The notes under the pieces were generated by a model. It saw only the letters and a program-made list of their open reading frames with translations, was not told the DNA's origin and did not search any database. Positions 16,501 to 62,336 of a stretch of 64,000 bases of DNA are shown piece after piece. The number at the start of each line of letters is the position of its first letter. Positions within the stretch are counted from its first letter, which is position 1. Origin of the DNA: Botryllus schlosseri (Eukaryota); the NCBI GenBank assembly GCA_051294905.1, contig CM119372.1, positions 24,244,001 through 24,308,000 on the forward strand, in the 5' to 3' direction. The position numbers and the translations under genes are program-made.

Positions 16501-19500
16501 ACCATAGTTGCACTAGAACGCACTTTACTCTATGCCATTGCTGTGCACAGCATTAGAATTCGGGCCTGATGTTCAATTATGATAAATCAGCAGATGTGGT
16601 TGTTGCATATATAATAGCATCTTATGAAATACGTCGGAGCCGGAGCTACTCCTCAAATAACGGGCTCCAGCTCCGGCTCCGGCTCCGGCTGAATTTTATG
16701 TACAGCTGCGACTCCGGCTCCGGCTCCAGCTCCGGTGAAAATGCACGGCTCCGGGGCTCCAGCTCCGGGCTCCGGCTCCGGCTCCGAAGCCCTGGCTATA
16801 ACTAAGGCGGTTTTTTTACCGAATAAAAGGAAAATTTTGACCTATAAAATCAAAATTTTGACTTTTTTTGACCTAAACAAACTGATTTTGACCAAATTGA
16901 TTTTGAACAAATTTAGACGAAATTTAGACTTAACGTATGCAAATTAGGTGTTTTTCCACCTAATGTTAAAATTGTACCACTTATCTTCACTTGTGGTTGT
17001 AACTGGCTGTCCTAACGAAGTAGTTTGGCCTGAAAAAACGTTTTTGGCTTAGAAACAGGCAACTTTTTACATGAAAAAAACAGAATTCAAACGAAATCTG
17101 GCCCTATGAAGAATTCCAGTGGTTACAATACGTATTATGGTAGAAATCATTAAATTTTTTGTAGTACAACGAGCGATACTTTCCTACATTCTTGCGTAGA
17201 AAGTGCATGTCCTTACTAAGAAACTTGCTAAGGACGTTCAACAGCAGCAGATGTTGGCTGACAACACTCAAGTTGTGCGTACACTGCTGGTGACACACCG
17301 TGTTGCTTCATTCTGACAATGTTGTCCACATCACTATTTTTCATCATGCGCTTCTCAATATAAGAATGATGCAATGCCCAAGAAGTCTTTCTTCAGTTAG
17401 GATATTGCGGTACGTTGACCATAATACCATGTCTACCTATTTGTTTTATTTGACCGTTTATGATTCATAATAAGCAGACAATTAGCCGTTTACAACGGCA
17501 GGCCTATATAAAGTCGGCTACAAGCTGTAATATATCAAATGATAACTTCACCAACAGTGCAAAATCTATGATACAAACGAATTGCAGACGTCAAAATTTT
17601 TTTGACTTTATGAACAATTTTGACCAATTTTGACCTAACGTTACAATTCTGACAAAATTTTGACAAATTCTGACATATACAATTGAATAGTATATTCATA
17701 TTGAAATGAACCCGAATATTTTCGGCTGACACTCGTCAGGGGTAATCGTCAGCAACTAGTAGAGAATTGGAAAGAACATTGTATATTAACAATCTTATCA
17801 CAAAATATGACGTCACCAGCATATTTTGTGATACTCATTCATCATCATCATTGGTTTATTAGCAATTTTATCAGTTCAATACGATTTTTCAATACGATTT
17901 TTGATACACAATGTTCTTTCCAATTCTCTATACTAGTTGCTGACGGTTACCCCTGACGAGTGTCAGCCGAAAATATTCGGGTTCATTTCAATGTGAATAT
18001 ATTATTCAATTGTATATTGAAGTTCTGTACCTCCAAGAAGCTCTTCAAATTCTGACATGTCAAAAAAAAACCGCCCTAGTTATAACCAAAGCATGTTGCG
18101 GTAACATAGTGTCACGATTAGAGCCCGACCGATTATCGGCTCGCCGATAATATCGAGTCGATATCACGCTTGGAGAGAAATATCGGTATCGGCCATTGAA
18201 GGTAAAAAAATATCGGCCATTTTCGTGACGTCACAACATGGTGGCAGGGAGTCAAGAGAAGTCGATAAAAGACGTGAGGACGGTCAATTATAAAAATTAA
18301 TGGCCAAGCTGCATATAGTGCATACTGCATGCATACAGGGCAGTAGGCGTGTCTATCTGAAAAATATTATAGATAACTAACCACCGTTATGCCCCACTGA
18401 ATTCGTGGGAATCCCCCTGCAGTAATCGATCACCAAAGACAGAGAGCAGCTGGATGGATAGTTGTCTGCAGAAAATTTCAGTCAGTAAGAGAAATGAGAA
18501 CTTCAATCATGCTGGACTGACCCTCGTAATGATAGAGAAAAGCGTCGCGTCGAAACATTTCCCGGTTCGGTACCAACAGAGCTAATTATACCAGTAATGT
18601 ATGAAGTCGTCTGACTGAGGCCTGCGGCTGCGGGGCCACCATGATAGGAAATATGCGAGCATAGAGGGCAAGAAAATCAAGCAAACGTGGAGTAAAGCCA
18701 ATAATTCGTACGAAAATTTTTGATTCCATGATGACATTGGCCAATTCTGACAAAAGATTGTAACATATTGATCAATTGATTGTTGAAATGTTGGTCAAGG
18801 TCCATGGGGGATGGGTGGAGCAGTTGCAGACGTGGACAATTTGAGTTGTTTTGCACATTCTCTTCAGCTATTTGTTAATGATGTGCTGAAGGCTCTAGGT
18901 GCATTGTCAGAAGAATATCAATATTTGGTTAAACCATTGAAGGAAAGATCCCCTGCGAGGGAGCGGTGGAACCGAAATGAAGAAAGATTTCCTGCTGTGC
19001 TACTAACTAGGCCTATGCTACCAAGTGAAAGACTGCTCACTGTGTTTAGTACTATATACATCATCTGTGGAAGACCACAGAAGTTCACTCCTTGGAGAAA
19101 GGGCCGAGAGTTTGTGCTTCGTGAACTGTAATCTGCAACTGCTGGATTGGTGCTTTTGATACATTTTTATAGTTCCTTGATCATTTATTTCATGTTCAAG
19201 CATATCAATGGCTGTAAAGTTGTTGAAAGAAATGCTCTTGAGGTGTTAAATATGGGCCTTGAGCTAGATTCCATATCTTTTGAATATCGGCTGAATATAT
19301 CGGGGTTATCGGTGGAGGTACTGGATATCGGTCTTATCGGTATCGGCTCAGAAATCCAATATCGGTCGGGCTCTAGTCACGATGCATGTGAATGTGTAGG
19401 TTATGGAAAAAACATAGCTAAGTAGGGCTTTGTTGAAAATATATTCAATCATGTAATACAGGGTCCAGCTCGGACCACTCGCACTTTCCGCAATATCAAG

Positions 19501-22500
19501 ATATGATTAATAACGAAGTACTTGTACTGTCTCGGAGTACTCAAGTAGCTTTTTGTCATCTTTAATTTCTCAAGTGGTTACGCTACTACTTCCAATTCTA
19601 CTTAACAGTTTTTTATTCTACTTAGTTCTCGCACTTTAGATTTGTGGTATGTTTGTATCACCGTTATATGACATTGCCCATCTCTCCCAGGAACTGACTG
19701 AATTTTTGAAAATCTAACTACCATTAGTATTATTAGCCATGTTGCATTATTCGCTAAGATACACACTATAATTTCGGAAGTTGAAACCTCCGATTCACTG
19801 CTAAAACTATGCAAATGGTCCATCTCAGCTACTTTTTGACACCGTACTTGAGTACTTTACAGATTGTCGTTTTCCACCATCTCTTGAATTAGTTTTGACA
19901 TGTCTTGTAAATCACTATTTTTACTTGCACTTCAGAACCAATTTTAACTACTTTGACCACTGACAATAACGATGTCTATATATCAAGCGTCTTCATCTAT
20001 ACGCGCCACAGGGGGCACAAAACGCTCTTTGATCCGTCTTTAACTAGAATTTGGCAATCATAGATTTCAAGATTGCGTAAAGCGATAGTACTGGAGGTCA
20101 GGTCCAAATTTTGAGATAACAGTGTCCAGCATGTTAATGAATGTTTAGAAATTGTTCCAAAAACTACTTCTTGGTCCCCGCCCCGGGATTGAAGTGACGT
20201 AGATATTAGTGCTGAAATACTGACATACTGACAGGTTACTCGGCATCATGAAAAACTTAAAACGTCTGCCACAAAGTCCATAACGAATGCTAACAGAACT
20301 TCAAAAATCTAAACTGTGTGTATATGACTTCAAGCCAATAATCAAAGAGAAAAGATTAGGTGATCCTGGAGAGCCGTCTATTTAATATCAAGACCTCAAC
20401 TCCAGAAATTCGTCTGTCGATGGCTTCATCACTTTAGGATATATTTAAAATTTTCACCGCTGGACGGCTAGTCTCATAACGGTTTCGCAAGCTTTCGCGA
20501 CCGCCAGCATTACTTGAAATGTCAATTTCGGAACAGTGTATACTGTAAAAAAAAGATGGGTTTTTAAATGAAATATATATTACAATATATATATTAAATC
20601 TCAAACATGAGGTGTTGCTAAAGTTTATTACGTCATAGGTACCGACAGAGGTTATCAGTAACGAAGTACATCTTTTATGCCAAGTAAATTTTGCCTACTT
20701 GCATGACTTCTTCAAGTAGGTACGTTTTAGACTACTTCTACTTTTCATTAACAGATTTCAGCTACCTAGGCCAAACTAGGGCTGGAATCTTTACTTTTTC
20801 ACTTAATTGGAAATCTCTTCACTTCAACTTGAGTACCAACGACAACCTCTATCGACATCGTCAATAAAACTGTTGGTAATAATAACGAGTTAGAGTATGA
20901 GCGAAACATTATATTCCTAAAAGTGATTTGGCACTTTTACTGATGTTGTTTTAATGAAGAGTTCAAGTCAAGTGGTCAATCGCAGGCCATGATAAAAGGT
21001 ATCGCGGACCGTTCTTTCGGTATCCCAGACTGGATCGAACGAGTACATTTATTTCGACTGCAGATATTTCGTAGCTCTGCACCCACTAATAATTATTATA
21101 ATCATCAATTCTACCTAGTTGTACCATTTATCTCGCTCATCAACATATTTTACCGGATAACAATATGTGAATGTGTCTGCATCATCTCTCAATCTCTGTT
21201 TGTGAATATTCACATAAACAGCGGTATAGAATTTCGAAACGAAGCCATTACATACTTAACACGACTCGTTTCCGAAAAAAGCTGTGGAAAGGTCTTTGCA
21301 AATCTTTTCCCGAGCTCGATCATTTCGCGGTATCCCAGATCCGTAAGATCTTCTTTTAGGCCAGGATGGTACCAATTACGCCACTGACCGATTTCCTAGG
21401 AAAATCACATCAACATTTTACAGATATTTATTCAAATTAAGAATATCATGTCATGCATCAGAGTGTCAATTTCAAGCTGATGTTCCTAGAACTCTTATTC
21501 TAATCCGATTAAAGATTTAGTATGAGATTAAAAGGATTGCCAAAACGAAGTTAAATTCTTTTAGAGGTAAAATACGGATCAATGATACTTTCTCCATTTT
21601 ATATATAACATTAATTCTCTACTAATTCTATATCATCAATTCTCTACTAGTTGCTGACGATTACCCCTGACGACTGTCAGCCGAAAGTATTCGGGTTCAT
21701 TTCAATAGGGAAATACTATTAAATTGTATATTGAAGTTCTGCACCTCCAAGAAGCTTGTCATTAATTTTTTACGTAAAAGTATGGAAATCACGCAGTGAA
21801 CTTTTTCCGGTAATTGTCGGAGTAAGATGTTTTTTGGAAAAATAAGATCGATCATAATTTTATCTAATCCATTCTTGATTCTGGAATTGTTATGTACTGA
21901 TGTTGGTCGCATAACCCCTGAGCATTCCTTTCGCACACTTGTGTGCGACGGAAAACTGTTTGCGAACCTCTGGCATACCCAATCAGTTAACGGTTTTATA
22001 TTCATCAAACCCTATGTAATTGCACAAAATCTGAACTGAAGAAGCATGGCCTATGTGGTTTTGCAATGCAACATCCATTGAAGAGTAACCTCCAAGTCTT
22101 TAGGACACATGTCCGCGGCTCCTGTTGCATTCAAGTTTTGCCGCAAAGTCTCCAGTCTTCCGAATTTTTCGGCCTCGTCGAATGTTGGTCTATGACGCGA
22201 GCCATGACGCACAAGGAGAACCATACCAAGGGGTTCGCAGCCTGTAGTCGAATAAATGTATCAATGTGAAAAAGACGGGCTGTTCTACATTGGAGAAGTG
22301 GTCTACATATAGCTCATGGCGCGTTGCATTTTTCTGATTTTTAGACCAGTGATAATTATCCCAAAAAGGTGACGTGATAGAAACAAATATCGTCATATTC
22401 GGATTTATCGCCCGCAAACTAGGCAAAAACGATCCAAACACAATCTGCAAGAAAATTTTTGGTAGATCAGTGAGTTTGGCAACATTAAAAAATACTATTC

Positions 22501-28019: not shown

Positions 28020-28654
28020 ATGTTAATAGGGTGAGCTTTTCAGCGAGCGTGATGCACGTGTTCTGATAAATCTGGGACATGCTGGTTTATGCTTTTCTGC
28101 AACGTAACCGTTACGTAGGAAGAACATCGAAGCGTTTGCAGGAACGCATAAACCAACATGTCCCTATATTTATCAGAACGCGTACATCACGCTCGGTGAA
28201 AAGCTCACCTTTGACTCATCCGCTTAAGCTTGACCCTGAGCGTTCAAAGGCCATAAATTCTGCCATTGTCAAACATCTGTTGGATAATCCCGCCTGTGCG
28301 AAAAATTATCGAGGCGACTGATTTCGCGTCACTGGGAGGGGCCGCTCACACTTTCATCTGTGTGCCTTGGAGTCGACCTTTATCTAAATACATCAGCCCA
28401 AGCTTTGACAACAAAAGGAGTTCGTGTACCACATTAAAATAGTACATTGAACGCTCTCATATTTGAGATCTCATTTCGTGCTGCTGACGTCATATTTCAA
28501 GATACGATTGTTAATATACAATGTTCTTTCCAATTCTCTACTAGTTGCTGACGATTACCCCTGACGAGTGTCAGCCGAAAATATTCGGGTTCATTTCAAT
28601 ATGAATATACTATTGAATTGTATATTGAAGTTCTGTACCTCAAAGAAGCTCTTT
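28020..28654 (+). mobile_element. Penelope-like element, 5'-truncated: decayed GIY-YIG endonuclease (28079..28450) plus pLTR
   Basis: VYAF...YVGRTSKRLQERINQHVP...SAIVKHLLDNPAC...*FRVTGRGRSHFHLCALESTFI*IHQPKL*QQKEFVY, three in-frame stops, followed by the hammerhead-bearing repeat; left boundary approximate. Confidence 0.88.
28557..28590 (+). ncRNA. Minimal type I hammerhead ribozyme motif in a Penelope-like pLTR
   Basis: accc CTGACGA g tgtcagc c GAA a atat t C gggt: stem I accc/gggt, complete CUGANGA/GAAA/UH core, 1-bp stem II, palindromic AATATT helix III; predicted cleavage after C28586. Confidence 0.85.
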
Positions 28655-31600
28655 AAATATGAGTCTAGTGTGAAACGCCGATTTGAGTATACTGTGTCGT
28701 GGAATATAATCTTATTATAACCGTATGGACTTGTGTACTGTGTTAGGCGTTCCTTGTAAAGAGCGCGGAGCAGGCGGCAATCGCAGAGAGACGATGTTCC
28801 GAGCCTAGTGACACAACCGCGTTATATTGATGTGATGGAGAACAGGCTTTTTTATTTACTTTACGGTCTCTTAAAAGTACATATTTAAACTTTCCACGTC
28901 GTACATACTCCTATGATGTCATAGTGAGTGATACTCGACTCCACTCCAAGTCAGACAGGCGACGCAATAGTGTGAATCTGATAAATGCATCTATGTTGTC
29001 CAATAATGTATTCACAGTGTAGCATGTAGCAAAGCAATTCGCACCGCAGTAGCAAGGGTAAGATTATCGTTGATCATGACAGTAGCAATATAATCAGACG
29101 TTGTGACCAACCTATACAGGATCATCACAAAGAAATAGGCATGGTCGAACCTTTGTTAGAAGTAGAGCCGGCATTATTTTCTTTTCAGTCTCTCACTCTT
29201 CTTGGATCCTTCCATTTGCAATGACATAATGATGTGGCACTAACTTCGACAACCCAGTACTCGATCCGGCATCGAATCATTCAGTTCACTTTTTCACGGC
29301 CCCTTTTGAATTTTTCAACGTGAGAAGATTGCTGCAGTTCATCATTCTCATGGAGTGAGCAATGCCAATATATAGTTGGAAAGCTAGCAACTAACCTCTT
29401 ATCGTTTCTAAATTAGATGTTATTCAAATTGACTTGAAGTGACAATCCCACCAAAGTTGAAGAATGACTGCATATCTGCCATTTTCACGGTTCGCAACTC
29501 GAATGCGACACCTAATCGAAGATTCGTATTGTTTAATTCTACGCAGGTTTTTGAATATCCGTGTATATCTGATTCTTGTGAAGCATTGTCCCACGGAAGA
29601 ACTCGTCAAGGGTATAATACGCAACGTAAAATTCTTTCCATTGATGAAACAATAGGGTGTATTCTCACTATAACCGCCTCACTGGCTCACCAAAAATGCC
29701 AAGTTTGCTCCATTCGACGCAAGTTCCGACTTCTTGAACGTCCGATTAAGCCTTTCGGTATATTCTTCCGCCTTGAATGGACTCTCGTTCTGTAAAATTA
29801 TTTTGCAATCTCAAACGAACTTGCGCGAATGTGAACAGAGGTAAATTTACCACAAGAGACATGTTGCACATATAGACTGTAGGACGATGGCATCGTCTCG
29901 TTACGTCTAAGTCAACTTCAACTATGACTCGAGTCATGAGGAAGATTTATTTCTATTTTGTCATTGAAGCATGTTATGAATAGCCAGCTTCGAGTCAAAC
30001 TCATAGTTTGTGGTAATAACTGATTTACTAGTGATTTTTACGGTCTTTTCCTGCTCGGTTGACATATTTCAGACTAAAATATAAATCTGAAACGATGACA
30101 GTAATACAAATCAGGAATTGTTGTACGGGTTAATAGCACAACAAAACGATATACCATATTCCGTCAACCAAGTAACCGTCCTTTTTAGGAGAACAATACC
30201 ACAAGACGCAGCATCAAGTCCCGGCAGTATAGCATGTTTTGCAGTGTCGAACTGTCGAGGTGGATGTTAAATTTAGAGACCTTACTGGATCATTCCGGTA
30301 TCCTTTTATCACTGGGCTACATTTAATCGCATTGTGTCTTATATGTCGCATTGAATATTGTGCGTCTTAGGCGGATAAAAATATTTCAACAACCAAGTGT
30401 ATTGTACATAATTCTTTATAAAACGGTGATATTCTGCAAATCATCTTGTTGAGACCTCAAGTTACCGCGAATATCCATCGTTTGATCACTGATCTTGCAA
30501 GCTAAGAATCATATTTATTCACTTCTGGTATACGAGGACGGTATTTCCATCTGGTTTTGGATTGTTGACTATTACAGTTTCCGTGATTTCACTTCACCAT
30601 TGGATGAATCACAGGAGATAAGTTCAATGACTTTGAACCGCGGTTGTCGCTATACTGCATGTACACAGGGATTGTCTCTTCCTTTATTTGTTTTCAGGTA
30701 TTTTTAGCAGTTGCCATAACATTAGTCGAATAATGATTATCATTAGTCATTAGTGTGCTCTTTTAGATTTGGGATCAGACGAGGATGCATTAAATTGATG
30801 CGAGGAAGAAGGATGGCTGCTCATGAATTTTACCAAGCCTACTAAAATATCATATATGTCACTGTATGTATAGTGTATAAGCAGCTATTGTGGTTTGGGG
30901 CGATGGAAAACCTCACTGTAGATATTTTACTGAGGTCAGGACACCATTCTTCTATTGCACACTGCCTTAGAAATCCTCAAACTTACCTAAAATTAGCATA
31001 ATAATGCACGATTTACCATGTAAAAGAATATTACTGTAAATGCAACATCCAATTGCACAGTGACAATGTAAATATCTTATTATTAAATGAATCGTAAGAA
31101 CATAACGGGGAAATGGATAACGAAGCGAAACAACATAACAAAGAAATGGGTTAATTTGACAAAAATATAATACCAATCAGGTGGATGAATGGGTTGATTT
31201 TTCGAAATTTTTAAATATTTGTCGGAGATCTTCCACGGCCTGTAAGAGACTGGCTTATGTTTTCTGTCGTCAGATATGGACTGGACATAGCGTGGTTCTT
31301 GACCATTATTCACGAATTCCCGAGCACTCATGACACGCGGATCACTATGCCATTCGGACATTAAAAGACTCTACCGGATGGTGTTCCACAGCTATAGCAT
31401 CAATATGAACCACGATTCTGTCCCAATCAAACACACAATTAAAAACATGACATATGTCTCTGTCATTGAATGGGTTTACAGGAGCTTTCAGAGTCACAAA
31501 TGTAGATGAATGATCGGATCAGATCAAAATCTATGCTATGGTGGGTGTCAGCTGCCTGTGAATAAGATATAGATGTGCTCTAGCTGTAAGTACACCTTCG

Positions 31601-41360: not shown

Positions 41361-44279
41361 ATTTAGGGTAATGTCGAAATTACGAAATTTGCCACCGTAA
41401 ATATTATATTTCCAAAAATTGCTGAAATTTCAATTGGCTCCATTTCGGCTCTGCTAGTTGTAATTGACCCGAAGGTGGCCTGCAGCGTTTTTTAGGCAAC
41501 TAACGATTTAATCAGAGAATTACAAAAATCCGAAACAAAAAGTTATTTTTAACAATCCAAATGTACAATTGCACATGTGTACATACCGTTGGCAATTTTT
41601 TTATTTCAGCCAAAATATCTTCGTTATTCCATACTTCTTTCAGAAATCTGTCACAATTCGCGAGACTGAATATGATGGTGTCGTTTATGATAATTGGTTG
41701 TGACGAATTGGACGAATGTTCCATAAAAAATTCTGGCAGATTCCCGTGTCCTCTGAAAGTTCGACTAATAATATCTGTATGGAAATCAATAGACCGAATA
41801 AAATGTCAGCCTTCTTGGTAAATACGTGTTATAATCATAACATGTTGCGATAGCATAGTGTCGTGGTGCATGAGAATGTTTAGGTTATGGGAAGAACATA
41901 GTTATGCATGCATAACTTGTTGAAATATTCAATCATATAATATAGCGTTCAGGTAGGACTTCAGACTACTCGCACTTTCTGCAATACCAAGATGTGGTCA
42001 ATAACGAAGTACTTTTATTGTTTAGGAGAACTAAAGCAAGCTTTTGTCGTCTTTGATTTCTTGCTCACCTATTTATGATCCTATATTATTTCCATTTTTA
42101 GTTAACAATTTCCAAATCTATTTACTTCTCGAACTTTTGATTCTTATAAAGAAAGTAGTTTTATGGTATGTTTGTATCACCTTCATGCATAAAATTGCAC
42201 ATGTATCACTGTAAATGAATTAATTTTTGTATATCGCACCTACTGTTAGTGCTATTAGCCAGCCATGCTGCGTTATTCGGTAAGATCGACAACTTTTCAG
42301 ACTGTCATTCTCTCCCATCACTTGAATTAGTTTTGACATGTCTTGTAAATCGCTTATTTTCACTTGTACTTGAGAAACAATGTTAACTAATTTGACAACA
42401 ATAACTAAGTCGACATTGTAGGTAAATTCATCTATATCAGTGGTTCTCAATCTTTTTGTGTTCGCGGACCCCCTCTCGACCGCCACAGACCCCCACGGAC
42501 CGCTACGTTTTAGTTCTAATTTAGTTCAATTTTCGTGCAAACGTCATCTGTCCTGTGTAAATATCAACTGTAGGCTGTTAATGAACAGCAACAATATGAA
42601 TTTTATTGAATATAACATCATATTACTGAGTGGAAGTTAGGAAGACGTTTAGTATTTCAAATTGAATTCTGTAGCTGCATTTCTTGATATAGGCGGCGGT
42701 GATGGCGAATGTAGTAATAACGCGTAACGATTATGACTATACGCCTTTGGGTATGATCGCAGCAAATTTGAGAAACAGGTGTTTAATGAACATATAACGT
42801 TCCGCCTAATCATTTCTATCCGGCAACTCATCTTGAAGTTTTTTCTAGAATAGCGGTTTATCTCAGCTAGAAAATGGATTTTTACAATCATTTTTTCCAA
42901 AACGTCAACTTGAACTTCAAAAATTTAATCATTCTGCATATGAATTCAAGCCAATAAACAGAGTAAAACGATTTGGTCACCCTGGAGAACTATCTAGTAG
43001 TTTCAGTACCTCAACTCCAGGTTTCATCAATTTAATATATGTCTTAAATTTTCACCACTGAGTAGATACGGTATCGAGTCTCCGTGTTCATAAAGAGTCA
43101 AGTCCAGCCTCATAACCGTTATCGCAAGCTTACGCGAGCCGTAGAGTTACTCGAAAAGTCAATTCATTCGGACTAGTGGATGTTATATCTCAAAAATGAG
43201 GTGTTGCTTAAGATTATTACGTCTTAGATATTGACATATGTGATCAGTAATGAAGTAGCCTACATCTTTCAAGTAAATTTCGGCTACTGGCAATACTTCT
43301 TCAAGTGGTTATGTTTTAGATTACTTCTGCTTGACAGTTCTCAGTTACCTAGGCCAAACTAGGCCTAGAACGCACTTATTTGCTTACTTGGAAATCACTA
43401 TACATCTACTTCAGTCACAACGGTAACTAATGTCACCCTTTCTAGACATCGACATCGTCAGATCTGTCGTTCTGTTAGTTATGATCACGATTCTGAATAT
43501 CCGCGGAACATTGTATTCATATAAAAGTGATTTGGTATTTTACTGGAGTTGTTTTTATGAAGTGTTCAAGTCAATTGGCCTATCGCAGGCTGTATTAAAT
43601 AGTATCACGGGCCGCTCTTTCAGTATCCCAGACGCGGATCGAACAAGTTCGAGACCTCAGTATTTTTATTTCGACTGCACATTTTTTTAAAGTTCTGTAC
43701 CCACTAATATCATCAATTTTCCTAGGATGAACAAATTATCATCATTTATCTACATATTTTTAGCAAATAGCAATATGTATTTGCATATGTATCTTAATCT
43801 ATCACTCTCTGTATATTTTCACACATACGCACACAACGGTATGGAATTTCGATAAGAAACCATTACATACTTAACACGGTTTTTTTCCGAGAAAAGCTGT
43901 TGGAAGGTCTTTGCAAATCTTTTACCGAGCCCGATCATTTCGCGGTATTCCAGATCTGTCGAATCTTCCTTTTGGCTGGGATGATACCAATTGCGCCACT
44001 GGCCGTTCTCCTAGGAAAATCACATCAACATTTTACAAATATTTATTCAGATTTAGAAATATAACATCATGTATCACAGTGTCAATTTCAAGCTGGTGTT
44101 TCCAAAACTCTGACTCTAATCCGATTTAAAATGTAATATAGGATATGAAGGAGTTACGCAACCAAATTAAGCGCTTTTTAGAGATGAAATACTGATCAAT
44201 GATACTTTCTTCATTTTATATCTATCAATAATTCTCTACAAATTCTATATCATCAATTCTCTACTAGTTGTTGAAGATT

Positions 44280-44313
44280 ACCCCTGACGAGTGTCAGCCG
44301 AAAATATTCGAAT
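44280..44313 (+). ncRNA. Mutated hammerhead copy in a solo pLTR (~44250..44375), duplication paralog of 21663
   Basis: Core intact, 3' stem I strand gggt changed to gaat. Confidence 0.6.
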
Positions 44314-44513
44314 TCATTCCAGTATGAGTATACCATTCAATTGTATATTGAAATGCTGTACAACCAAGCAGCTTGTCATTAATTTATTACGTAGAACTTT
44401 GAAAATCAGGAAGAGAAGTTTTTCGGTAATATTCGGAGCAAGATGTTTTTTGAGAAAATAAGATTGATCAGAAATTTACCAAATGCCATTCTTGATTCCG
44501 GAATTGTTATGTG

Positions 44514-45300
44514 GCGTGACTGTATACCGGTGTACCTACTAGTACAGAACTTCAATATTGCAGCAAACAACACGTTCATATTGTCAAATTCATCCCACTC
44601 GAAGTTTTTGGACTGACTCTCACCAGGAGCGAACGTCATGAAATGCGGTTAATCAAATTCGAAATATATAAAGAATTATGCCGTTGTGACGTAATAATGA
44701 CAAGTACAGAGATTCGTGAATGACACGGTTACGGTATAACAGACACAAATTCGGCTGTAAAATAGCCGAACGACAACACAAATGAAATAATCCCATGGTA
44801 TACATATGCTCCTTCTGGCGGCAGAGGATCCGCTTTTGCGGCTTATTGTAACGGTAGATCCGAGGACTTTTAACTGAATAAGAGAACAACCACGAGCAAC
44901 CATATGGAAAACTGATTACTACTGTATTGTTTCGCACACTGGAGGTGTTTTAAAATGTGTTGTCCGGTGGCAGAATTACAAGTTGTTATTGGATCACGCA
45001 TGGTATTTGAGACTGTGATGTCGGTGAATTCTTTGTTGCAAACGCTGAGACGTGCGACCCATGATACTGACTGTCGCATCGGGACATGCATTGGTAAAAT
45101 ATGTTAATCTGGTCGTTCCGAGGTAGCGCATTCTCTCGCGTTGCGGGTATAGTGAAGATTTCGTAGCAAATATGACACGGGTTCCACTTGTGGCAAACAA
45201 TGACTCACGGAGGACTAAATTTATTTTTCAAACCTATTACAAACTGTGCCAATCCACGGCAGATGCAAATAAGGTGCAGGGAACGCCTCGGTACAAACGG
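44514..45300 (-). mobile_element. Second, older Penelope-like fragment (GIY-YIG remnant plus pLTR-like 3' end)
   Basis: Frameshifted pieces MGRTSQRLQQRIHRH, SATGQHILKHLQCAKQYSSNQFS, ILCRQKEHMY; 3' end shares ATATTGAAGTTCTGTAC with the first pLTR family; boundaries approximate. Confidence 0.78.
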
Positions 45301-61983: not shown

Positions 61984-62336
61984 GCTAATCCCAGATGGTC
62001 TAGGGGTCAGGATTCCTGGCTCTCACCCAGGCGGCCCGGGTTCGATTCCCGGTCTGGGAAAAGCCATTCTCCGTTGTGTGGCGAGATAGCGCAGTGGTAT
62101 AATCCGCGTCTACAACACCAATGGGTGCGGGATCGAGTCCGACCGAGGTCGACTTCGGAATTCCGATACCCAAGTGTTGGAGGTTTACCTAGGCTCCTCC
62201 TCGCCTTACCAAAAGCCTAGAGGTGGGCCGTGCTATAAGTCGGCAATTACGGAGAATAAGAAGAATATCGGCCTGGTGTAAATGACATAGTAGTCGACAA
62301 ACACCATGAATACCCCAAAACAAACAAACAAACAAA
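61984..62336 (+). mobile_element. Chimeric retroposon: tRNA-Glu gene + short linker + SINE family 1 + (CAAA)n tail
   Basis: TSD ACCAATGGA at 61975..61983 and 62337..62345; uninterrupted host sequence visible in the paralogous MITEs at ~27270..27300 and ~40755..40790. Confidence 0.85.
61989..62060 (+). tRNA. tRNA-Glu (anticodon CTC), intact cloverleaf, part of a retroposed tRNA-SINE chimera
   Basis: TCCCAGA acceptor pairs with TCTGGGA; anticodon stem CCTGG/CCAGG with loop CT-CTC-AC; T arm CCGGG TTCGATT CCCGG; 72 nt; no oligo-T terminator directly downstream. Confidence 0.92.

Follow-up and report, generated by a model that had tools for sequence, protein, structure and literature searches.

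Can a hammerhead motif whose stem II is a single base pair still form a complete ribozyme fold, and what then stands in for helix II? The question is raised by a short repeat at the end of a Penelope-like element (PLE) in a stretch of 64,000 nucleotides (nt) of the Botryllus schlosseri genome (assembly GCA_051294905.1, contig CM119372.1, positions 24,244,001 to 24,308,000 of the forward strand), referred to as the window, whose own coordinates are used throughout. Comparison of the repeat with its relatives elsewhere in the genome gives a probable answer: the repeat is a hammerhead motif of the PLE pseudo-long terminal repeat (pseudo-LTR) in which helix II consists of the pair G10.1-C11.1 together with a conserved pseudoknot of 6 base pairs (bp) formed with a box in the 5' flank, and self-cleavage is predicted after C28586. 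The structural part of this claim, supported by covariation among aligned sequences, is very likely.

Read from the window, positions 28557-28590 (+) give accc-CTGACGA-g-tgtcagc-c-GAA-a-atat-t-C-gggt, and every position of the hammerhead core is present at 28561-28586 (C3 U4 G5 A6 N7 G8 A9, G12 A13 A14, A15.1-U16.1, and H17). The 5' strand of stem I, ACCC (28557-28560), pairs with its 3' strand GGGU (28587-28590). Between the two lie the core box CUGACGA (28561-28567, C3-A9), which fits the CUGANGA consensus; a stretch at 28568-28576 that comprises G10.1, one bridging U, the hexamer GUCAGC (28570-28575, denoted P2b) and C11.1; the core letters G12 A13 A14 (28577-28579), read here from the window and fixed by the search patterns in other copies; the palindromic helix III strand AAUAUU (28580-28585, A15.1 to U16.1), which cannot close intramolecularly; and C17 (28586), a U in family F described below. 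The numbering rule that hammerheads cleave 3' of H17 places the predicted scissile bond at 28586/28587. Upstream, the box GCTGAC (28547-28552, denoted P2a) is the exact reverse complement of 28570-28575 and is separated from stem I by the linker GAUU (28553-28556); as the 5' strand of the pseudoknot helix it would replace the 5' strand of helix II (10.2-10.7). Identical copies of the 34-mer are found at 17949-17982 (+) and 17710-17743 (-), and copies with two mismatches at 21663 (+) and 44280 (+). Allowing up to three mismatches, the window contains five matches, compared to none in 100 shuffles. The window sequence confirms what the original prediction had read from it, namely the 34-mer, its identical copies at 17949 (+) and 17710 (-), and the complementarity of GCTGAC to the loop.

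Relatives of the motif were sought in the genome (495 Mb), and all families described here derive from this one genome. A 180-nt query around the motif results in 1715 initial candidates, the 30 best of which carry the 34-mer with no or one change. A pattern with the letters of family A (the family of the window copy) fixed and both 6-nt boxes left free yields 4522 matches, compared to none in a reversed control; a looser hammerhead pattern yields 8221 matches (690 in the reversed control) and led to families B, C and D. Two further patterns retained the same spacing. The first barred the loop from the family-A letters at two positions (51 matches, 13 in the control) and returned the C2 copies, the other barred stem I from CC (358 matches, 5 in the reversed control) and returned families E, F, G and H. 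The search patterns fixed the strings YTGANRAG and CGAAA. The alignment consists of 40 of the 50 distinct copies that were fetched (numbered with the prefix L), and counts of rows below refer to it. Dropped were L034, owing to a register shift, and L053, L056, L057, L059, L060, L062, L065, L066 and L068, in which a 13-nt deletion or rearrangement removes the upstream box.

Across the families the two boxes change in concert. Families A, B and C combine GCUGAC upstream with GUCAGC in loop II; family F has ACUGAC and GUCAGU, its variant F2 (L073) ACUAAC and GUUAGU; family E has ACUGGC and GCCAGU, its variant E2 (L077, L078) UCUGGC and GCCAGA. The C2 copies (L070, L071) pair GCCGAC with (U or A)UUGGC, family H (L087) pairs CGUGCC with GGCACG, and family G has UGUGCC and GCCAUA with one mismatch. 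Double-sided changes are found at all six pseudoknot pairs and 85.8% of the cells are paired; 20 of the 40 rows stem from the search that demanded a mutated loop, which is a bias against the pseudoknot. The covariation score of the whole structure is 0.416, compared to 0.183 ± 0.014 for shuffled alignments (reached by none of 500 shuffles), and controls in which the partner strand is slid score 0.047-0.097. The shuffle control ignores the relatedness of the copies; since five different pairs are affected, and not all in one family, several independent events are indicated despite this relatedness. G.U pairs are present on the plus strand, consistent with RNA of that strand. The pseudoknot helix alone amounts to -4.0 to -9.1 kcal/mol in nine families. 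The linker varies by family (GAUU, GAUA, GUU), with linker and stem I strand adding up to a constant 8 nt despite this variation. Within family A, the first 100 of the 4522 matches exhibit single scattered changes only, plus two non-compensatory doubles, a lack of compensation that is uninformative because the copies of one family decay neutrally. The loop II pseudoknot, which the original prediction had put forward as a possibility and for which it had proposed covariation of GCTGAC/GTCAGC and of stem I over genome-wide copies as a check, is therefore supported: covariation was found in both helices, and pairing of the boxes is kept through double changes across PLE families.

Three helices in total show covariation, the third (helix III) as a palindrome only. 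Stem I has double-sided changes at four of its five pairs and occurs as ACCC/GGGU, UCCC/GGGA, GCCC/GGGU, CACUG/CAGUG and CGCUA/UAGCG. For the C3-G8 pair, 33 rows have C-G, four U-A and three U.G; cores with U3 and A8 (UUGAAAA, UUGAUAA and UUGAGAA, in L039, L040 and L084-L088) stand beside C3-G8 cores, with a U3.G8 intermediate in L038. The same C3-G8/U3-A8 covariation is known from the PLE hammerheads of Schistosoma. At H17, 38 rows have C or U, and the other two have A (an E copy) and G (an F copy); U16.1 is kept across the aligned copies, and both of these positions as well as the covarying helices were free of pattern constraint. The pair G10.1-C11.1 is found in 40 of 40 rows, but both of its letters were fixed by the search patterns. 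The helix III strand of family A is AAUAUU, that of families B, C, E and F is AAGCUU; as the central pair, 22 rows have G-C and 12 rows U-A. Only six palindromic nucleotides lie between A14 and H17, and no stable intramolecular helix III is available. With a complete core, and with stem I and C3-G8 covarying, the assignment to the minimal type I hammerheads of PLE pseudo-LTRs is supported, as is the palindromic nature of helix III that had been noted for it.

The families differ in further details. Family B combines the linker GAUA with stem I UCCC/GGGA and the helix III strand AAGCUU. Family C has stem I GCCC/GGGU, an extra U before C11.1, and the cores CUGAAGA, UUGAAGA and UUGAAAA. Family D is a classical PLE minimal hammerhead: its helix II is a 5-bp hairpin, and one A is bulged out. 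Its copies (L042-L046, outside the window) consist of CUGAUGA, a GGAGC/GCUCC hairpin, GAAA-GC-UC and stem I ACAC/GUGU; they coexist with the pseudoknot type in the genome, in one occurrence as an inverted pair. In four of the copies excluded from the alignment (L056, L059, L065, L068) the 13 nt between the two CTGACGA boxes are lost, a deletion that takes away the linker, one box and the strand of stem I. Each of these copies has altered loop II letters, possibly a selection effect, as the search required an altered loop.

The host of the motif can be recognized from its coding remnants. Positions 28112-28447 (+) match residues 749-860 of an intact 860-residue PLE open reading frame (ORF) of the same genome with 83% identity (tblastn with ORF P0001, E 5e-53), and correspond to the C-terminal 112 residues (the end of the GIY-YIG endonuclease) of a 5'-truncated ORF of a canonical endonuclease-positive (EN+) PLE. 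The GIY-YIG remnant that had been named beside the motif is therefore real; the direct Pfam match to GIY-YIG on 28070-28318 is weak (E 0.0067, 17.1 bits, cutoff 22.6). Contrary to what had been stated, the motif does not follow this remnant directly; it starts 110 nt past the stop codon. Further along, 28565-28660 matches residues 1-32 of the PLE ORF. The ATG at 28601-28603 (+) is the one that opens the ORF in intact tandem copies; its homologue in copy L032 starts the 860-residue frame with M-N-I-L-F. The two ORF matches identify the copy at 28557 as the 3' terminus of an insertion truncated at its 5' end. This insertion ends at 28655-28660 (+), about 72 nt beyond the predicted cut, where the similarity among 30 copies collapses and the tblastn match stops (28660). 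The remaining four copies in the window represent shorter pieces of the terminus, and two of these face each other head to head.

Intact elements were reached from two of the 30 best copies. L032 consists of a tandem of two 860-residue frames with a unit of 2692 nt, and the motif is located between the stop codon and the next ATG. In such tandem copies the predicted cut falls 131 nt past the stop codon and 14 nt ahead of the ATG of the next unit. Each frame of L032 has a Pfam RVT_1 match (E 7.8e-9), a DKG motif, and a C-terminal VVYEY...YVGRT stretch with a CHCDC motif, a combination that identifies a canonical PLE with a C-terminal endonuclease. The motif is hence located in the pseudo-LTR of a PLE that encodes both reverse transcriptase and GIY-YIG endonuclease. 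The downstream ATGAA start and the N-terminal coding sequence are common to families E, F and A, and families E and F are therefore PLEs related to A.

Hammerheads that use a pseudoknot are known, and one, the pseudoknot-containing (PK) hammerhead, was reportedly described by Weinberg in 2015. In the crystal structure determined for the PK hammerhead (Zhan 2024, PMC11300833), which is a fast ribozyme, the G10.1-C11.1 pair and a 6-bp pseudoknot replace helix II: A9.G12 and G10.1-C11.1 form a short stem, and the pseudoknot of the loop "fulfils the same role that helix II plays". The motif described here resembles the PK hammerhead in its standard core, its loop closed by G10.1-C11.1, the 6-bp pseudoknot as helix II, and a partner strand located 5' of helix I. 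In the PK hammerhead, however, an extra hairpin (helix IV), with a minor-groove triplex strand to helix I, offers its loop as this partner, and helix III is a normal one, whereas here the partner strand is an open 5' flank with a linker of 3-4 nt, and the palindromic helix III strand is unable to close alone. A conserved helix IV was not seen around the upstream box; the flanks can pair weakly in families A and B, but not in C, E and F. Lacking a helix IV, a closed helix III and an Rfam model at threshold, the motif is best described as a variant distinct from the PK hammerhead. A stem II of a single base pair has also been reported for a hammerhead whose activity needs a 6-bp pseudoknot, as proven by disruption and compensatory rescue (Perreault 2011, PMC3088659). 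That ribozyme shares the single pair and the 6-bp pseudoknot with ours, but it is of type II and metagenomic, and its pseudoknot connects loop I with the 3' tail of stem II, not loop II with the 5' flank.

A second point of comparison is the metazoan PLE minimal hammerheads (Cervera and de la Pena 2014, PMC4209133), in which helix II is a hairpin of 6-8 bp and a single nucleotide is left unpaired between A9 and G10.1. In common with these are the location in the pseudo-LTR of an EN+ PLE, a stem I of 4-5 bp, G10.1-C11.1, a palindrome at 15.2-16.2 in place of helix III that points to dimers, the U3-A8 variant of the core, and a genomic distribution of thousands of dispersed copies, inverted pairs, and tandems approximately 3 kb apart. 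Unlike them, the motif has a hairpin stem of 1 bp without bulge, and reaches 7 bp only if the pseudoknot is counted. PLE hammerheads are held to lack tertiary loop-loop contacts (review PMC7761336). Similarities also exist to PAc (Poseidon) of Anolis carolinensis (PMC11167929), in which the hammerhead of the pseudo-LTR likewise lies by the ORF start, RNA-seq ends at the cut site are likewise absent, and reverse transcription begins downstream of the motif, such that insertions contain it. A pseudoknot helix II in PLE hammerheads is found in none of the literature titles, abstract openings and passages covered. The fold with a pseudoknot for helix II is already published for hammerheads outside PLEs (PMC11300833, PMC3088659); what is new here is that the motif sits in an animal PLE, takes its partner strand from an open 5' flank, and joins the pseudoknot to a helix III of the dimer type.

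By analogy with the solved PK hammerhead, the pseudoknot helix would stack on G10.1-C11.1 and act as helix II. GUCAGC-C would form a continuous strand, placing G10.1 stacked beneath the G that opens the upstream box. The one nucleotide following G10.1 would then have to pass from one strand's 5' side to the 5' end of the other, over the deep groove of the 6-bp helix; such a groove can be spanned by a single nucleotide over 6-7 bp in classical pseudoknots. The linker of 3-4 nt would join the far end of the pseudoknot helix to the far end of stem I. This connectivity is that reported for the PK hammerhead (PMC11300833). Helix III is expected to form only between two copies, AAUAUU with AAUAUU, and cutting would then probably require a pair of pseudo-LTR copies, whether these share a transcript or sit on separate ones, perhaps assisted by the element's own protein as in Anolis PAc. 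The motif's likely role would be to process the RNA of the element 14 nt before the start codon.

Several results from model searches, sequence conservation and transcript data weigh against a pseudoknotted hammerhead that cleaves. A search of the window against Rfam at gathering score returns only a tRNA and no hammerhead family, and no hammerhead is found on 28450-28700 at E up to 10. Neither RAGATH-1 nor the PK hammerhead family is among the matches at E up to 10 for the window copy or for family E. The closest approach is family E, which aligns to Hammerhead_1 over the full length and in the same register at a sub-threshold 16.6 bits (E 4, gathering score 34). The search with Rfam Hammerhead_1 models, which the original prediction had proposed, hence fails for the window copy even at this permissive threshold, and the curated covariance models (Hammerhead_1, Hammerhead_3, Hammerhead_II, HH9 and HH10) do not recognize the motif. 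The conservation of the core between families is partly obtained by construction, as YTGANRAG and CGAAA were fixed in the searches. Ten family representatives speak for the pseudoknot (96.7% of its cells paired and double changes in five of six pairs, compared to 17-33% of cells paired for slid partners), but they were hand-picked after their pairs had been seen. The helix III of family A, being all A/U, would be a weak dimer contact. In 29 young copies the 44-nt motif has 0.4% minor letters and is barely better kept than its flanks: 22-nt bins from -59 to +94, counted from the first base of the upstream box and including the motif, have 0.3-1.3%, and the pseudo-LTR is uniformly well kept from about -80 to +95 among the 30 best family-A copies. 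A core that stands out from the rest of the repeat, as had been expected for a ribozyme, is therefore not seen within family A, where this check is non-discriminating.

Transcript data bear on cleavage more directly. Reads of one raw RNA-seq run (X24, approximately 6% of the run) and one single-cell run, labelled as the same species, together with two contig sets, were placed on the tandem junction of L032. The depth of X24 is approximately 190-215 per mate orientation over a 200-nt block of the pseudo-LTR (L032 2915-3118) and is continuous across the predicted cut (L032 3042/3043). No accumulation of read ends is seen at the predicted cut in either the RNA-seq or the single-cell run, which is a weak test given standard libraries and solo copies. 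Of the placed X24 reads, 96% continue into unlike sequence, such that most derive from solo dispersed fragments inside other transcripts. The loose read ends cluster at L032 3110-3118, which is homologous to the 3' end of the insertions. Read ends, tblastn matches and copy alignments agree that insertions end about 72 nt past the cut site, and the template RNA that was reverse transcribed was thus uncut there. The 5' ends of copies are not enriched at the cut site either, with four compared to ten at a control boundary 6 nt further. For PAc, RNA was cut only with protein added, the double mutant C3G/G8C gave partial rescue, mutants of the hammerhead were without effect on insertion in vitro, and reverse transcription starts internally and downstream (PMC11167929); metazoan PLE hammerheads are described as cutting poorly in vitro (PMC4209133). 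We consider the chances of self-cleavage in vivo to be about even. Since inserted copies carry an uncut site, a trimming of the template for reverse transcription is unlikely, and any cutting that does occur is more likely to benefit the coding RNA at its 5' end than the template at its 3' end.

The lack of read ends at the cut site, the uncut site in each 5'-truncated copy with its 3' end about 72 nt beyond, and the missing enrichment of copy 5' ends are also compatible with a decayed or never-active look-alike, whose boxes are kept for a non-catalytic use such as a fold recognized by the element's reverse transcriptase close to where it initiates internally, or a translation element immediately before the AUG. 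The normal insertion of PAc mutants in vitro, the cutting by PAc that depends on protein, its missing RNA-seq ends (PMC11167929), and the poor cutting of metazoan PLE hammerheads (PMC4209133) point in the same direction. The catalytic letters, however, are kept along with the covariation of C3-G8, a pair of which a pure binding fold would have no need; H17 remains C or U in nearly all rows, U16.1 is retained, and PAc RNA is cleaved with a partial rescue by C3G/G8C. We therefore regard a look-alike as unlikely. Another use of the same letters would be a pairing of loop II with the core itself (CUGAC 28561-28565 with GUCAG 28570-28574), forming an off-state hairpin in a two-state switch with the upstream GCUGAC as a decoy. 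This hairpin amounts to -5.4 kcal/mol in family A, where it is part of the nested minimum-energy fold (the upstream helix alone has -7.4), and to -6.3 kcal/mol in family B, and 79% of the cells pair in its register. It shows no covariation (0.152 versus 0.164 for shuffled alignments, reached by 373 of 500), and in families C, E, E2 and H it drops to between -0.6 and +2.6 kcal/mol, compared to -7.8 to -9.1 kcal/mol for the upstream helix. In E (CUGAAGA with GCCAGU) and H the loop fits the upstream box perfectly, but not the core. That loop and core match in A and B is explained by an upstream box that in these families happens to look like the core, a resemblance (GCTGACGA) special to families A-C. 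Such a switch appears improbable.

In a third alternative, the upstream CTGACGA (28548-28554) is the core of another hammerhead, with helix II CUGAC/GUCAG, stem I GUUG/CAAU and a cut after U28596. A descriptor scan indeed reports this arrangement at three of the window copies. Its helix II, however, would sit six unpaired nucleotides from A9 and two from G12, families E (ACUGGCG), H (CGUGCCG) and G have an upstream box that does not resemble a core, and the proposed stem I GUUG/CAAU is absent from family B. With helix II off the core, and with neither stem I nor the core-like box kept in other families, this candidate was rejected as highly improbable. The pseudoknotted hammerhead, with the upstream box as a strand of helix II, remains the preferred reading of the motif.

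PLE hammerheads have been described as minimal, slow and without tertiary braces, and their role is unsettled. The 6-bp pseudoknot backed by covariation is the device behind the solved PK hammerhead, reportedly the fastest form known, and its presence here indicates that these elements keep a sophisticated fold under selection. In this one animal genome, thousands of such motifs escape the Rfam models as well as descriptors that demand a hairpin helix II, so that hammerheads in retroelements have probably been undercounted. Reads that pass through the site, uncut copies, and 5' ends located elsewhere together indicate that the motif, if it cuts, does not do so for trimming the template of reverse transcription. 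A wider reading, which we put forward tentatively and with more doubt than confidence, is that of an animal PLE clade with a hybrid ribozyme under two locks, a PK-type helix II formed with the 5' flank and a helix III that closes only between two pseudo-LTR copies. The HHR_core entries of PMC8557442 (Naiad) have a hammerhead core whose stems do not fit, and come from PLE groups described as devoid of canonical hammerheads. If the wider reading is true, the same pseudoknot would explain these entries, and hairpin-based descriptors would have undercounted PLE ribozymes systematically.

The other window copies differ in their state of preservation. At 17938-17985 (+), pseudoknot box and motif are intact in a short 3'-terminal fragment; the third copy (17707-17754, -) is inverted and forms an inverted-repeat pair with it. 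The two terminal fragments are head to head within 17707-17985, approximately 200 nt apart. Published PLE insertions include those with an inverted 5'-truncated copy beside a pseudo-LTR, and the pair at 17707-17985 fits this arrangement. Two copies are decayed: at 21652-21699 (+) G10.1 is changed to C and the palindrome is broken to AGUAUU, and at 44269-44316 (+) the pseudoknot box reads GTTGAA and the 3' strand of stem I GAAT.

Upstream of the motif, the box TGACGTCA at 28485-28492 (+) is a palindrome similar to the cAMP response element (CRE). Copies of families A, B, C, E, F and G carry boxes of the form (T)(G/T)ACGTCA(T/C) at a distance of approximately 55-75 nt upstream of the motif, and in the upstream flanks of L033-L040 and L073-L092 these boxes are kept while the surrounding sequence diverges; the box may be a promoter element of the pseudo-LTR. 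Straight after stem I, within the first 10-15 nt, AAUAAA is present in families B, E, F, G and H (L033-L037, L073-L092) and not in A or C; it may act as a polyadenylation signal for transcripts that read through from the preceding unit. Elsewhere in the window, 44782-45271 (-) holds the remnant of a distant, different PLE ORF, with 28% identity to residues 681-821 and 47% to residues 846-860 of the family-A protein. A tRNA-Glu gene with the anticodon CTC is located at 61989-62060 (+), with 60.1 bits in Rfam and in agreement with ARAGORN.

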